From Escherichia phage Paul: a stretch of DNA of 64,000 bases. The stretch lies in the sequence record NC_070992.1. One strand, 5' to 3'. Positions 38,520 to 48,292 of the stretch are shown here, in pieces (within the stretch, counting starts at the first letter, position 1; each line of letters begins with the position of its first letter). The translations under genes were made by a program, and so were the position numbers. The notes under the pieces were generated by a model, which was not told where the DNA came from, did not search any database, and was given only the letters and a program-made list of their open reading frames with translations.

Positions 38520-38723
38520 TTAGTAGAACGAACGAATTTCATCCCACACTTGTTCCTGTTCTTTCCTATAAAAAGAAAGTTGGGTCTTGAACATCTCCAC
38601 TGATGATTCAAAGTTTTTAGATTGTGCAGCTTCAACGAAACGTTCATGTCGGTTGATTTTGCACCGTAGCATTAAATACTTGGCTTCAAGTATCCGAAGA
38701 GCCTGTCTTTTCTCAAGATTCAC
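38520..38723 (-). CDS. hypothetical protein
   Basis: 67-aa ORF. Confidence 0.3.
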   Translation of the reverse strand: MNLEKRQALRILEAKYLMLRCKINRHERFVEAAQSKNFESSVEMFKTQLSFYRKEQEQVWDEIRSFY

Positions 38724-39132
38724 TTTTCAGATACTCTGACCAGTCGCCAGATTCGACCAGAACATCTTGTTCTTCGTCAATGTGATAAATCCAAGCGATA
38801 ACAGTTTCACCTGAGTCCAGCTTAACAGCAATCTGAGTGCGTTGATAGAAGCTATCTTCAGGGCTACGTTTGTTGTAACCTTCCAGTCGGTCATATGGAC
38901 CTTCCAGACCTGCTTTGTCAGTAGCAAATACTTCTACACGAACAGGCTTATTGTTATTGCTGTGTGCGAGAGAGATGCTTGGGAAATAGGAACCACCATA
39001 ACGGAACAGATCAAAGTTATCTTCAGTCCAACCTTCACCAATTGACTTAGCACCAGCTCGGTCATTTACTAAATAGTTAGCTTGACCGCTACGAAGAGAA
39101 CCATAAGTTGCTACGTAAATTACTTCTGACAT
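38713..39132 (-). CDS. gamma-glutamyl cyclotransferase-like protein (AIG2/GGACT fold)
   Basis: VATYGSLRSG, GPYDRLEGY and ETVIAWIYH match the YGSL...E...Y pattern of GGCT/GGACT enzymes. Confidence 0.6.
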   Translation of the reverse strand: MSEVIYVATYGSLRSGQANYLVNDRAGAKSIGEGWTEDNFDLFRYGGSYFPSISLAHSNNNKPVRVEVFATDKAGLEGPYDRLEGYNKRSPEDSFYQRTQIAVKLDSGETVIAWIYHIDEEQDVLVESGDWSEYLKSES

Positions 39133-39133
39133 T

Positions 39134-39343
39134 TTAAATACCTTTCCAGTCTTTCATGATGTTTTCAATGTAAGCACACTGTTGATCAGTGGCTCCTGTT
39201 ACAAATACTTCTAACCCCAACTGCTCGCAGAAGGGATTAAGAATTAGTATTCTGGTTTGTCCATATGAGTGATGCTCTCGATAGATAACACACCCAGCAT
39301 CCCATACAGAATCAATGGCTTTACTTAATCTTTCATGTTTCAT
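39134..39343 (-). CDS. hypothetical protein
   Basis: 69-aa ORF in the accessory cluster. Confidence 0.3.
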   Translation of the reverse strand: MKHERLSKAIDSVWDAGCVIYREHHSYGQTRILILNPFCEQLGLEVFVTGATDQQCAYIENIMKDWKGI

Positions 39344-39397
39344 AAAACCTCCAGTCTATCCGAACTAGCCTCCTCTTTTCGAAGAGGCTAAAGCAGA

Positions 39398-39583
39398 TTA
39401 CTCTGTACTAAAGATTTTGATTACACCGCAGATTGCTGCACTTTCAAACACTGCAACAGCTTCACTTCCTTGAAAGAAGGCTACTTTTCCATCAGAGAAG
39501 TTAAACATGTCAGCATCGAGGTCCATAGCTCGCATTTCACCGGCTGTATTAGTATCTTTAAACAGAACTTTATACTTATTCAC
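39398..39583 (-). CDS. hypothetical protein
   Basis: 61-aa ORF in the accessory cluster. Confidence 0.3.
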   Translation of the reverse strand: MNKYKVLFKDTNTAGEMRAMDLDADMFNFSDGKVAFFQGSEAVAVFESAAICGVIKIFSTE

Positions 39584-45308: not shown

Positions 45309-45317
45309 GATAACCTC

Positions 45318-46124
45318 TTATGCTACCTGAAGGAGTTTGATCTGCTGGTCCGCTTCTTTAACGTTGTTGCCGTTAATGATTTCATGAAGCTTCTCAATCG
45401 GAAGGCGAGAGTGTAATGCCATCAGAGTGGACATATCGCACTGCTGAACAACCTTGTCAACCTGATCGTAAACAAACTTACGGTTTTCACGATCACTAAT
45501 CCAGAAGTTAGACAGTGAACGGTATTCAATACCATAGTCTTTATAACGGATTGCAGATGCTTTGCCATAGAGTTCTTTACGGCGAGTATCTTTGTCCATA
45601 ATAACTGCTGGAAGTGACAGGAAGTAATCACACAGCACACCCAACATCATCTGAGTTTGCAGAGTGATATCCAAAGCACCAACCACACCAAGATGTACGT
45701 GACCACCGGCAGTACGAAGTCCCTTATTCTGAGAAGTCGGGGATGGATTCTTCTGACCAGTGAAGGCGTTGAAATCAGGAGTGCACCCGAAGATGAACGC
45801 TGATTCGTTGAAAGTTTTCATCTCTTCTTCAGTGAAGATGTGAGAGCTAACACCCGGAGCAGTTTCCATGTCCAGTTTGTTCAGGACATTATTGGTGAGA
45901 TCGATACCACGTTGCATGTTATCGTTAAACGCTTCAAAACCGCTCTGTGGGTCAATATCAAACTCAGCCAGTACGTTGTCCTCTTGAAGACGAACATCCT
46001 TAGCCAGGGTGATCTTATCGTCCTTAGAACAGCCTAACAGACCAGCCACAGAAGTGATGATGCCATTGCTGGTACGAACAAACATTTCAGGATCAGAGCC
46101 GATAAGGAATTTGCGCTTAGTCAT
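45318..46124 (-). CDS. hypothetical protein (accessory cluster)
   Basis: 268 aa; KFLIGSDPEMFV and GGHVHLGV are faintly reminiscent of a second divergent amidoligase; not assignable by eye. Confidence 0.4.
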   Translation of the reverse strand: MTKRKFLIGSDPEMFVRTSNGIITSVAGLLGCSKDDKITLAKDVRLQEDNVLAEFDIDPQSGFEAFNDNMQRGIDLTNNVLNKLDMETAPGVSSHIFTEEEMKTFNESAFIFGCTPDFNAFTGQKNPSPTSQNKGLRTAGGHVHLGVVGALDITLQTQMMLGVLCDYFLSLPAVIMDKDTRRKELYGKASAIRYKDYGIEYRSLSNFWISDRENRKFVYDQVDKVVQQCDMSTLMALHSRLPIEKLHEIINGNNVKEADQQIKLLQVA

Positions 46125-47088
46125 TGTAATACTCCACTAGTTCAGAAAAGAGAGATGAGATTGTGTTACCAACTTCTTCAGTAGTAAGGCCAGAACTTGG
46201 GCCAGTACGTTGAATTAGTCGGGCTGTAAAGTTTTGTACTATAATGTTTTCCAACTTATTGTCTATTGCTTCACGTTTGTGACCATGACAGTTGGACCAG
46301 AGTCTTAACCACTCTGACATTGTTTCATACTCGTCCGGGTCTTGATCTTTAGCACGAGCAAATCTTCGTAAGGCATCTTGGTTATGGTTGCGAACATAAC
46401 CGTCCTTGTTGTCACCAACACCGAAGGGGTTTTGAACCCATACTTGTTTCGTGTATTCATCAGAGTCTACAACCAAAGGAAGGAATGCTGCTGCTGACAT
46501 ATTGTTGTTAACAACAATAGAGGTGCTCTCGCTACTCCCATTGGCTCTTCCTCGTTGAGACCACCCACCGAAGAAGTCACGACCCAACCCAGCTAACACT
46601 AGAGCGATTCCGATGCGTTTACGCTTCAGCCACTCTTCCCTGTCTTCAATTCCTTCTGCTAGGAAATCCATTCCACGATACTGCCCTTCCAGAATACTGC
46701 GGAAAAGCATAAGTCCTGTGAAGATTTGATCTGCTGGATGCTCACGGAGGTTGACAGCAACACTATTCGCTGAAGTGATCGTAAATACATCACGATAGCA
46801 AGACATAGAGTTCATAATGTCTGCTGTTTCAACCAAGTTCTTTTCAATATCAGATGAAACATGACCGTGAAAAGAGTGAGTCCAGTAATTCAACATCTCC
46901 AGTTGCAAGTTGATATCACGGTTGAAACGTCTATAACGTCCTTCTTCCGTGATAACTTCGCCATCAATATCATTTACGCATTGGCCTTGCATGTAGTTGT
47001 GAATACCGAAGCACCCACGACCTAAGAACTTCTGTTCCCCTAAATCTTGTTGAAGATTCAGAGGTACGATCGTTGTGGAGATTGACAT
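46117..47088 (-). CDS. hypothetical protein (accessory cluster)
   Basis: 323-aa ORF; no recognised motif. Confidence 0.4.
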   Translation of the reverse strand: MSISTTIVPLNLQQDLGEQKFLGRGCFGIHNYMQGQCVNDIDGEVITEEGRYRRFNRDINLQLEMLNYWTHSFHGHVSSDIEKNLVETADIMNSMSCYRDVFTITSANSVAVNLREHPADQIFTGLMLFRSILEGQYRGMDFLAEGIEDREEWLKRKRIGIALVLAGLGRDFFGGWSQRGRANGSSESTSIVVNNNMSAAAFLPLVVDSDEYTKQVWVQNPFGVGDNKDGYVRNHNQDALRRFARAKDQDPDEYETMSEWLRLWSNCHGHKREAIDNKLENIIVQNFTARLIQRTGPSSGLTTEEVGNTISSLFSELVEYYND

Positions 47089-47098
47089 AACTAACCTT

Positions 47099-48292
47099 TT
47101 ATTTTCCTAAAAATAATCCGCTCATAACACCATCCCACTCAGAGGATGGAATCACTGAATACTCCGAACTTTGGTCCAGAATCCCACTACTAAATCGCTG
47201 AACAATGTTGTAGATGTTGAACAGGTCTTTAGCCTCGGCACGAATGCCGTAGATTAGCCTGTTAGCTGTTTTCTCATTTTTAGACACGCGACGGGTAAAG
47301 TTAACCAAAAGATTGTCACCTTTAAGTATCTCTGACCCATCTTTTACTAGATCGGGGTGCATCACTGGCAAGAACATTGAGTTGTTAACTCGCAATTCTG
47401 CTGTTTCATCGTTCTCATAATGAATCCACTTAAAGTCTTCATCACGGAAGTGACCACATCCATCTCTGTACGACTGCTGACGCCAAGGCACTTGAAATGC
47501 TTCAGCGTATTTATCAGCCATACCTACTGTAAACAGCGACGCTGGGAAGATACAAGCATCCCAATCATTACCAACCAGAGTTGCTTTCGTTTCGCCCAAG
47601 AGGTTAGTGTAAGTGCTAACCATTCGTGAGTAAACATAAGCCTGAAGGATTGTCCAGCCTTCAACCAACCATTTATGAAGGAAGGTTTCAACTTGACTCT
47701 CTTCATCTTCGCAATAGAAGGTTCGATCTAACATCAAATAGAACAGACAACGATCAGCAGGAACATTCTCAGTTGCTACCCCCATAAAACCTTTCTCGTG
47801 CCAGCGTAAACAGGAGGGACGATCTTTGTCCACAAATGCTTCCATAGCTTCCAGTACAGCACGAGGTGTGGTTCGATGCTCAGGGTTTTTGTCATTCCAA
47901 CGTTCAATGTTGTTTTTAAGCTCGCCTTCGTAATCAATAGCACCCCAACCTAAAGCTGCGGATACAGGTTTTTCATCACGCCAACGTCTAAAACCTAACA
48001 TCTTCATGTGAGTTCCGGAGTTCCAGATATGCTTGATTTTACACATATCCATTTCTCGACTTAACAGGAACTCTTCCCCATCAGCACTACGAACGTTAGC
48101 TTCTTCATGCCACACTCGAACGTGCATATTCCACCCATGAGTTGCCTCATACATGTTAGGGTCGAAGTATTCATCTTCGTCATCATCCTCATCAACGCCA
48201 CCGTTATAGTTGCGAAGCTGAAGGAACCCATAACAAGGAGGGTTGACCGTTAAAACATTACCTTCAGTATCTTCTAATGTTACTGGAAACAT
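47099..48292 (-). CDS. hypothetical protein (accessory cluster)
   Basis: 397-aa ORF; acidic stretch DEDDDEDE; no recognised motif. Confidence 0.4.
   Translation of the reverse strand: MFPVTLEDTEGNVLTVNPPCYGFLQLRNYNGGVDEDDDEDEYFDPNMYEATHGWNMHVRVWHEEANVRSADGEEFLLSREMDMCKIKHIWNSGTHMKMLGFRRWRDEKPVSAALGWGAIDYEGELKNNIERWNDKNPEHRTTPRAVLEAMEAFVDKDRPSCLRWHEKGFMGVATENVPADRCLFYLMLDRTFYCEDEESQVETFLHKWLVEGWTILQAYVYSRMVSTYTNLLGETKATLVGNDWDACIFPASLFTVGMADKYAEAFQVPWRQQSYRDGCGHFRDEDFKWIHYENDETAELRVNNSMFLPVMHPDLVKDGSEILKGDNLLVNFTRRVSKNEKTANRLIYGIRAEAKDLFNIYNIVQRFSSGILDQSSEYSVIPSSEWDGVMSGLFLGK

Follow-up and report, generated by a model that had tools for sequence, protein, structure and literature searches.

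The amidoligase cassette of Escherichia phage Paul, a phiEco32-type gene set with a predicted role in assembling and trimming amides

The closest described system to the locus treated here is the enzyme cassette of phage phiEco32, which was described in silico by Iyer, Abhiman, Burroughs, and Aravind (2009, Mol Biosyst 5:1636; cited in PMC10580990, PMC6256558, PMC5498523, and PMC11318856). In these citing papers, the cassette is a predicted peptide-bond-forming or cell-wall-modifying module, and it was proposed to block superinfection. Its five core enzymes also occur in LUZ24, PaP3/tf, PA11/K4, 7-11/SE131, RIO-1-like, and further phages, and in RIO-1-like phages the set was later named a "peptidoglycan modification cassette." Here, we analyzed 64,000 nucleotides of Escherichia phage Paul (NC_070992.1; this whole stretch is called the window), in which the minus-strand gene cluster at 38713–48292 is almost certainly the same phiEco32 gp77–gp88 amidoligase cassette. 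The cluster is not novel: a cassette of the phiEco32 type was already described in silico, and a Pfam family is named after that phage. What the window contributes is only one more near-identical copy of a set that is on record as a prediction. We propose that the cassette enzymes act early and presumably in the cytoplasm, where they would build and trim an amide-linked product on an acceptor other than DNA, and a probability of about 0.5 is given to this reading.

The window belongs to a Kuravirus, that is, a phiEco32/NJ01/SU10-like podophage of E. coli, and showed 95–96% identity to IMEP8, NJ01, and SGF2. Over the whole of region 38713–48292, DNA identity to dozens of Kuravirus genomes was 94–96%. 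Compared with phiEco32 gp77–gp88 (phi32_77–88), the window had the same genes in the same order without substantive difference, and the protein identities ranged from 86 to 100% gene by gene. The signature gene of the cassette, which encodes a ligase of 268 amino acids (aa), was found by tblastn in 305 phage records belonging to at least six phage groups, and the hosts among these records include Escherichia, Pseudomonas, Vibrio, Aeromonas, Proteus, Cronobacter, and Cellulophaga. Because of this DNA identity in dozens of genomes and the 305 records of the signature ligase, the cluster is far beyond chance occurrence. The cassette takes up ~12% of a Kuravirus genome and is under strong purifying selection.

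Nine further cassette loci were compared, which came from Gordonclarkvirinae, Grimontviridae, Bruynoghevirus and its relative Rembedalsseter, Zobellviridae, and a crAss-like Cellulophaga phage. The five enzymes recurred in these loci. Gene set and order were conserved in LUZ24, Rembedalsseter (a Pseudomonas phage with the complete syntenic cassette), SE131, 3H10_20, Vp_R1, K4, and Cellulophaga phage phi14:2. The gene-neighborhood comparison suggested by the initial annotation thus showed that the cassette order is conserved across several phage families. In every locus that extended that far, the cassette lay beside a primase or primase/helicase gene.

All open reading frames (ORFs) of the cluster are on the minus strand and are tiled with small gaps or overlapping stop/start codons, in agreement with the co-directional, tightly packed ORFs first reported at these positions. 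In the direction of transcription, the first half comprises u397, u323, COOH-NH2 ligase type 2, u205, Amidoligase_2, and a conserved leader of ~80 nt; the second half comprises the amidotransferase, s77, s74, the ATP-grasp ligase, three small ORFs, the GGACT enzyme, a small ORF, and the primase-helicase. The cluster had been placed downstream of the primase-helicase, which holds in plus-strand coordinates, but it lies upstream in the direction of transcription. Six small ORFs were counted instead of the five given before, and one of them is a homologue of gp79. The features are as follows:

47099–48292, minus strand: u397, 397 aa, the first large cassette gene; its family has many invariant Cys, Asp, Arg, and His residues
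46117–47088, minus strand: u323, 323 aa, with relatives at the Gordonclarkvirinae level only
45318–46124, minus strand: COOH-NH2 ligase type 2, GCS2/glutamine-synthetase-like, 268 aa, the signature gene (PF14395, phrog_3815)
44691–45308, minus strand: u205, 205 aa, between the two amidoligases and with overlapping stop/start codons (phrog_4877)
43591–44694, minus strand: Amidoligase_2, GCS2/glutamine-synthetase-like (PF12224, phrog_7469)
43504–43590, minus strand: amidotransferase leader, with hairpin 43563–43583, a 9-codon upstream ORF (43544–43515), AGGTGGA, and ATT
41481–43511, minus strand: class II (N-terminal nucleophile, Ntn) amidotransferase-fold enzyme, 676 aa, with a predicted ATT start (GATase_6, phrog_4736)
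41245–41478, minus strand: s77, DUF7195 protein, directly after the amidotransferase gene (PF23825)
41040–41264, minus strand: s74, a small ORF, Gordonclarkvirinae-specific by homologue search
39835–41037, minus strand: RimK/MptN-like ATP-grasp ligase, 400 aa (phrog_2599, weak Pfam/NCBIfam matches, PDB)
39580–39828, minus strand: gp79 homologue, 82 aa, 100% identical to phi32_79
39398–39583, minus strand: s61, acidic, 61 aa, with a C-terminal Glu, Gordonclarkvirinae-specific by homologue search
39134–39343, minus strand: s69, a small ORF with an SE131 counterpart at 62% identity (homologue search)
38713–39132, minus strand: GGACT/AIG2-fold gamma-glutamyl(amine) cyclotransferase-like enzyme (PF06094, phrog_2520)

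The initial annotation had counted two ATP-dependent ligases and had left four proteins of 205–397 aa unassigned. Three carboxylate-amine ligases were found instead, because the 268-aa protein among the four matched PF14395 (E 2.2e-8, 34.1 bits against a cut-off of 25) and phrog_3815 (3.3e-118); u397, u323, and u205 had no Pfam domain. The family PF14395 bears the name "phage phiEco32-like COOH-NH2 ligase type 2," and the protein in the window was 100% identical to phiEco32 gp86. Amidoligase_2 matched PF12224 above the gathering score (E 4e-8) and phrog_7469 (5e-159), and homologues were present in LUZ24, SE131, K4, and Vp_R1. No solved relative of either amidoligase was found by PDB sequence search. 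Paralogy of the two amidoligases is not claimed, as no similarity between them was found by pairwise BLAST.

The third ligase, of the ATP-grasp type, matched phrog_2599 (1.7e-183), and its Pfam matches were weak (Dala_Dala_lig_C, 6e-4; RimK, 2e-3; both under the gathering score). RimK/MptN-type NCBIfam matches lay far below the family cut-offs, and the PDB sequence matches were an alpha-L-glutamate ligase (1.9e-3) and RimK. The RimK, Ddl, and MptN matches, with scores below the curated cut-offs, all span residues 170–255. The Mg-binding E-x-N motif was present (WVLEVNTAPG at residues ~236–245), and the protein also has a linker rich in acidic residues, followed by a C-terminal domain of 82 aa (phrog_20552). 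Homologues were found in all cassettes examined.

The GGACT enzyme matched PF06094 (E 5.6e-17, 62.9 bits against a cut-off of 22.8) and phrog_2520 (8e-45), and it has homologues in SE131, Vp_R1, and phi14:2. The motifs YGSL (residues 10–13) and LEGY (residues 83–86) were read from its sequence; in the GGACT family, they correspond to the YG(S/T)L pocket and to the motif of the catalytic Glu. In the lysate of phage SU10, the ATP-grasp, amidotransferase, and YtfP (GGACT) proteins were detected by mass spectrometry and classed as early gene products. The fold calls of the initial annotation (GGCT-like, ATP-grasp, Ntn amidotransferase, and amidoligase) were therefore borne out, with support from Pfam, PHROG, NCBIfam, and PDB searches.

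The amidotransferase carries a GATase_6 domain (PF13522, E 1.1e-14). In an alignment to E. coli GlmS (1xff), the equivalents of Arg73, Asn98-Gly99, and Asp123 were kept (blocks HSRHAT/HTRWAT, VHNG/VHNG, and EVDSE/ETDTE). In GlmS, the Arg binds glutamine, Asn-Gly forms the oxyanion site, and the Asp holds the alpha-amino group, so that the sites for the alpha-amino and alpha-carboxylate groups of a Glu/Gln moiety are retained. With these residues intact, the protein very probably has Ntn activity, either as a glutaminase or as a gamma-glutamyl amidohydrolase. It may act as an amidohydrolase rather than a transferase, since no recognizable ammonia-acceptor (synthase) domain was found in Pfam and PDB sequence searches. 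The match to the EgtC family of NCBIfam was weak (2.5e-4, 20 bits against a cut-off of 219). No PDB sequence relative was detected beyond the Ntn domain, and residues 278–676 matched no Pfam domain, including no nucleic-acid-binding domain. Zinc-ribbon-like CxxC pairs numbered three in Kuravirus, SE131, and Vp_R1, one in LUZ24, and none in phi14:2. These ribbons had been taken for DNA-oriented features, but they vary among lineages and no nucleic-acid-binding domain accompanied them.

The length of 676 aa depends on an unusual start. The frame is open from 43511, where it reads I-C-G-I-V (codons ATT-TGT-GGC), with a stop two codons upstream, and phrog_4736 covers the protein from residue 2, so the 113 extra N-terminal residues belong to the family profile. 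However, no ATG, GTG, or TTG occurs before 43172, and a start at that position would give only 563 aa. To give the full length, translation has to begin with the ATT at 43511, and the codon that follows is that of the catalytic Cys. The upstream sequence is ATG AAA GGG TTT ACC CTT CAG GTG GAT TAG AAA ATT TGT. It contains the 9-codon upstream ORF (43544–43515), which is in the same frame as the amidotransferase and ends in TAG 3 nt before the ATT, and a Shine-Dalgarno-like AGGTGGA sits 7 nt before the ATT. A suppressor tRNA for this TAG was considered and rejected, since the window encodes no tRNA other than tRNA-Arg(tct).

The 58-nt block at 43504–43561 was 100% invariant between Kuravirus and Suseptimavirus, and the flanking coding DNA diverges. 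In the hairpin at 43563–43583, which follows the amidoligase stop, pairing was kept by compensatory changes. The fold energy of the leader was marginal (z-score −1.9), and the leader matched no Rfam family. The ATT-TGT arrangement was kept in five genomes of two genera, and the distant homologues in LUZ24, SE131, and Vp_R1 begin with MCG from an ATG. Translation from the rare ATT codon is inferred from these sequences; initiation at it may be coupled to the end of translation of the upstream ORF, and the leader looks like a translational control element.

The ATT start was annotated in the original phiEco32 record (EU330206), and the Bas91 record likewise gives the full 676 aa. Several RefSeq records carry a truncated amidotransferase without the catalytic Cys, because the ATT start codon was not recognized. 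In NJ01 (locus 8762–10450), the protein is annotated from the downstream TTG with 563 aa, and the catalytic Cys is lost. In SU7 (locus 10645–12648) and ECBP2 (locus 10648–12651), it is annotated from an internal ATG despite an identical leader and ATT-TGT.

Four conserved proteins without an assigned role are encoded together with the enzymes, namely u205, the DUF7195 protein, and those at the u397 and u323 positions. Homologues of u205 were found by iterated hidden Markov model search at the same position in LUZ24 (gp17), SE131, and Vp_R1. An exhaustive profile search among 1.84e9 proteins gave 64 representative clusters, nearly all of them stand-alone proteins of 170–225 aa, and no Pfam domain was found, longer members included. 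The DUF7195 protein s77 (PF23825, 4.7e-17) has counterparts in LUZ24 (gp20), SE131, and Vp_R1, in each case encoded next after the GATase; judged by eye, it is possibly a ribbon-helix-helix-type regulator. Going by these homologues, u205 and s77 are conserved cassette members at fixed positions.

In contrast to these, the proteins u323, u397, u120, s74, and s61 had sequence relatives only at the Gordonclarkvirinae level, in 17–18 clusters among 5.8 billion proteins. A confident structure model of u397 had no PDB neighbor, and the identity of the protein to SU7 was 42% vs. 70–81% for the ligases. We therefore regard u397 as a fast-evolving but genuine cassette member with an apparently new fold. 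The model of u323 was moderate (mean predicted local distance difference test score, pLDDT, 73.7) and had no meaningful structural neighbor. The many invariant Cys, His, Asp, and Arg residues in both families suggest that u397 and u323 are enzymes. With Pfam and NCBIfam at relaxed thresholds, nothing credible was found for any member of the u397 and u323 alignments or for the longer u205 relatives. The PDB sequence search with the u397 and u323 profiles, the amidoligases, the GGACT enzyme, and the amidotransferase gave only weak matches to the Ntn and ATP-grasp cores. When the u397 and u323 profiles were compared by hhalign with their positional equivalents elsewhere, the best probability was 30% (a 303-aa protein of SE131), a value that was weighed only alongside Foldseek. 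A short invariant helix motif, PAD-x5-M-x2-R, was common to u397 and u323 (VPADRCLFYLMLDR vs. HPADQIFTGLMLFR). Paralogy of the two was not accepted, as the hhalign probability was 0.4% and the short motif alone was shared.

In phiEco32, gp79 is an inhibitor of the sigma70-RNA polymerase and an activator of the phage sigma factor (PMC8948821). Its homologue in the window is a passenger inside the cluster and not a pathway enzyme.

A terminator-like hairpin with a T-run was observed at 48848–48865 (minus strand). It lies immediately upstream of two ORFs of 54 and 120 aa, which come before u397, and a terminator is annotated at the corresponding position of SU7. Because of these two features, the cassette may begin a separate, attenuated transcription unit. 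No phiEco32-type middle promoter (TAATGTATA) was found inside the cluster or just upstream, and neither a riboswitch nor another known RNA was found in the cluster. HNH homing endonuclease genes were seen at differing points of the cassette in SU7 (locus 7528–7998), UFV-P2 (ORF24), PE006, and EcoN5. Such scattered insertions fit a highly conserved, often exchanged target.

Two biosynthetic pathways resemble parts of the cassette. In butirosin biosynthesis, the ATP-grasp ligase BtrJ and the GGCT-fold cyclotransferase BtrG follow a gamma-glutamyl protecting-group logic. The phage cassette likewise pairs an ATP-grasp ligase with a GGCT/GGACT-fold enzyme, and from this pairing a gamma-glutamyl group would be added and later removed as 5-oxoproline. 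However, the likeness is at the fold level: the cassette has no acyl carrier protein, decarboxylase, or aminoglycoside genes, and it adds two glutamine-synthetase-like ligases and an Ntn enzyme. In ergothioneine biosynthesis, EgtA is a GCS2-type gamma-glutamyl ligase and EgtC is a gamma-glutamyl amidohydrolase of the class II amidotransferase fold. The cassette similarly has a GCS2/glutamine-synthetase-like ligase and a stand-alone Ntn enzyme that retains the glutamine-binding residues, whereas EgtB and EgtD are absent and the phage Ntn enzyme has a 440-residue C-terminal extension with zinc ribbons. The PA11-like phage K4 encodes in its cassette (locus 7253–7873) an extra protein of the Peptidase_C26/class I amidotransferase fold (9.7e-17), and this gamma-glutamyl hydrolase-type protein reinforces the gamma-glutamyl theme. 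Judged by their families, the recognizable enzymes fit together as a set that can make and break amides of the gamma-glutamyl or peptide type.

In the assembly-and-trimming reading, the ligases would activate carboxylates with ATP one after another and join them to amines, and at least one joined unit would be a gamma-glutamyl unit derived from Glu or Gln. The Ntn enzyme would either use glutamine ammonia to amidate an activated carboxylate or hydrolyze a gamma-glutamyl amide, as EgtC does. The GGACT enzyme would free the amine by cyclizing the gamma-glutamyl group to 5-oxoproline, a step of deprotection or recycling like that of BtrG in butirosin synthesis. No hydrophobic segment at the level of a membrane span was found in any cassette protein, and the process is therefore presumably cytoplasmic. 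Amide assembly and trimming along these lines is likely in our view, and that the acceptor is something other than phage DNA is slightly more so. The stepwise building and trimming of an amino-acid-derived amide, as put forward in the initial annotation, is reasonable given the enzyme folds, and the substrate was rightly said not to be readable from the sequence. The most likely acceptor is a soluble host metabolite or peptide. The sole published proposal for the acceptor is a cell-wall peptide precursor, which would be modified to alter the envelope. By analogy, a peptidoglycan precursor specifically is conceivable but doubtful, and the published function in the cell wall (a block of superinfection) is a prediction that is neither supported nor refuted here.

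Several observations weigh against the assembly-and-trimming reading or parts of it. The literature search found no experimental test of any cassette member, and for this reason the steps beyond fold assignment are inferred. Residues ~240–676 of the amidotransferase and the four conserved proteins have no recognizable function, and the chemistry could differ from that outlined. The peptidoglycan idea is one of analogy only. Neither a Mur-ligase-type nor an envelope-related domain was detected in the cluster, and the phages that carry the cassette infect very diverse hosts; one of these phages is a crAss-like phage of Bacteroidota. As to the acceptor, the comparison of native and amplified DNA by nanopore sequencing that gave no motifs of DNA modification was a motif-based analysis of a different phage, Rembedalsseter. 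The window retains 25 EcoRV, 9 EcoKI, and 93 EcoP1 sites, which are not depleted, and because these sites are still present a protective DNA modification is possible. Amidoligase and amidotransferase Pfam matches also lie beside thymidine-hypermodification genes in some viral contigs (Lee et al., 2021, PMC8989533).

The alternative that survives best is that the cassette makes or consumes a free, soluble gamma-glutamyl compound, such as a gamma-glutamyl-polyamine, a glutathione-like peptide, or another small amide, in order to support replication or packaging or to neutralize a host defense signal or toxin. This alternative overlaps heavily with the reading of assembly and trimming and differs only in the acceptor. 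Every recognizable enzyme has precedents in gamma-glutamyl small-molecule pathways (GCS2, EgtC-type, GGCT/GGACT, and the Peptidase_C26 of K4), the spread over phages of very different hosts fits a universal metabolite, and the early expression of the cassette genes is also in its favor. However, a simple metabolic shunt would not usually include four conserved proteins that are non-enzymatic or unassigned, nor members that evolve fast. There is no transporter or sensor from which a particular metabolite could be deduced, and the lack of a riboswitch in the cluster tells in the same direction. We consider this free-metabolite function unlikely.

A second alternative is that Glu or gamma-glutamyl residues are added to a host or phage protein as an S6- or Pup-type tag, or that an intermediate is built on a LysW-type carrier, to be trimmed or released by the Ntn and GGACT enzymes. 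Among named proteins, the closest relatives of the phage ATP-grasp enzyme are of the RimK, MptN, and LysX kind. RimK and MptN, both alpha-L-glutamate ligases, have the tails of proteins or cofactors as substrates, and ligases of the RimK and LysX-LysW type act on C-terminal glutamates of proteins; the similarity is confined to the ATP-binding core, though, and for RimK/LysX it does not come near the family cut-offs. The bonds on which GGACT-fold enzymes act are gamma-glutamyl-amine links, for example epsilon-(gamma-glutamyl)lysine, which suits a protein target. Variable zinc-ribbon pairs like those of the amidotransferase are typical protein-docking elements, and the fast evolution of u397 resembles that of a host-protein-specific adaptor. 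The acidic s61 ends in a Glu that was invariant in four sequences, although identity between the two lineages concerned, Kuravirus and Suseptimavirus, was 39%, and this C-terminus is reminiscent of LysW, S6, and Pup, which are substrates of amide ligases. However, s61 cannot be a general carrier, because no homologue was found in the cassettes of LUZ24, SE131, K4, and phi14:2, and the small protein is not conserved outside Gordonclarkvirinae. No candidate target was identifiable either, and we regard protein or carrier modification as distinctly unlikely.

A third alternative is that an amide adduct is placed on a phage DNA base or nucleotide precursor and shields the genome from restriction. 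The initial annotation had preferred such a nucleic-acid target. The adjacency that underlies this preference is real and recurrent, as the cassette abuts primase/helicase and replication genes in every phage examined, including the unrelated crAss-like phage, but it speaks for position only. The cassette shares with thymidine hypermodification clusters (Lee et al., 2018; Lee et al., 2021, PMC8989533) that it is phage-encoded and near replication genes, whereas the dUMP hydroxymethylase or TET/JBP, the 5-hydroxymethyldeoxyuridine (5-hmdU) DNA kinase, and the aGPT-Pplase of those clusters were not found here. It had been correctly noted before that the cluster does not match the known thymidine-hypermodification pathway. 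The only thymidylate synthase found was ThyX (PF02511, 1.8e-43; 31084–31740), which is of the ordinary type and yields dTMP. No dUMP/dCMP hydroxymethylase and no TET/JBP or TGT/DpdA-type enzyme was detected, either in the cluster or in the genome annotation of the close relative Bas91. Likewise, the cluster proteins and tested neighbors gave no Pfam or PHROG match to a 5-hmdU kinase or an aGPT-Pplase, the Bas91 annotation contained none, and no known base-transfer or base-activating family was found among the cluster proteins. A base-transfer activity could be hidden in u397 and u323, but their models had no structural neighbor among solved DNA-modifying enzymes.

The replication region at 19289–36207 (minus strand) encodes ThyX, a dCTP deaminase-like protein (34261–34794), and a PolyA_pol/CCA-like nucleotidyltransferase (34807–36207), and also a Macro domain protein (20345–20785), a SLOG/YspA-like protein (19289–19681), PhoH, and a DUF3310 protein. 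The deaminase and the nucleotidyltransferase were considered a possible DNA-modification route by the authors of the BASEL collection.

Restriction sites bear on the DNA alternative from both sides. Across the window (1–64000), 658 hexamer palindromes were observed vs. 1077 expected, and 15 of the 64 hexamer palindromes were absent, including GGATCC, CTGCAG, CCATGG, and GAGCTC. CCWGG occurred 4 times (71 expected) and GATC 142 times (236 expected). Palindrome avoidance is a usual trait of phages with DNA that restriction enzymes can reach. It would indicate that the DNA of the window has been exposed to such enzymes, which argues against a shielding adduct, as does the lack of modification motifs in the cassette-bearing Rembedalsseter. 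On the other side, the Gordonclarkvirinae in the BASEL collection show broad resistance to restriction-modification (RM) systems, for which no cause has been explained. Palindrome avoidance cannot account for the resistance to EcoRV, EcoKI, and EcoP1, because their sites are present in normal numbers, and an anti-restriction mechanism has to exist somewhere in these phages. With the contigs mentioned above also in its favor, DNA base hypermodification by the cassette still seems very unlikely. That the cassette is the source of the anti-restriction effect is improbable, and equally improbable is the combined proposal that it installs an amino-acid-derived modification on phage DNA or a DNA-associated protein, with u397 and u323 transferring it, and so causes the RM resistance of Gordonclarkvirinae.

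Few multi-enzyme modules of lytic podophages are as widespread as this cassette, and 17 years on the prediction of 2009 is still without a reported substrate, product, or phenotype. The BASEL collection includes Kuravirus-type phages for which E. coli K-12 with restored O-antigen is a host. Because these phages infect K-12 and show RM resistance, the question of what the cassette does is experimentally tractable.

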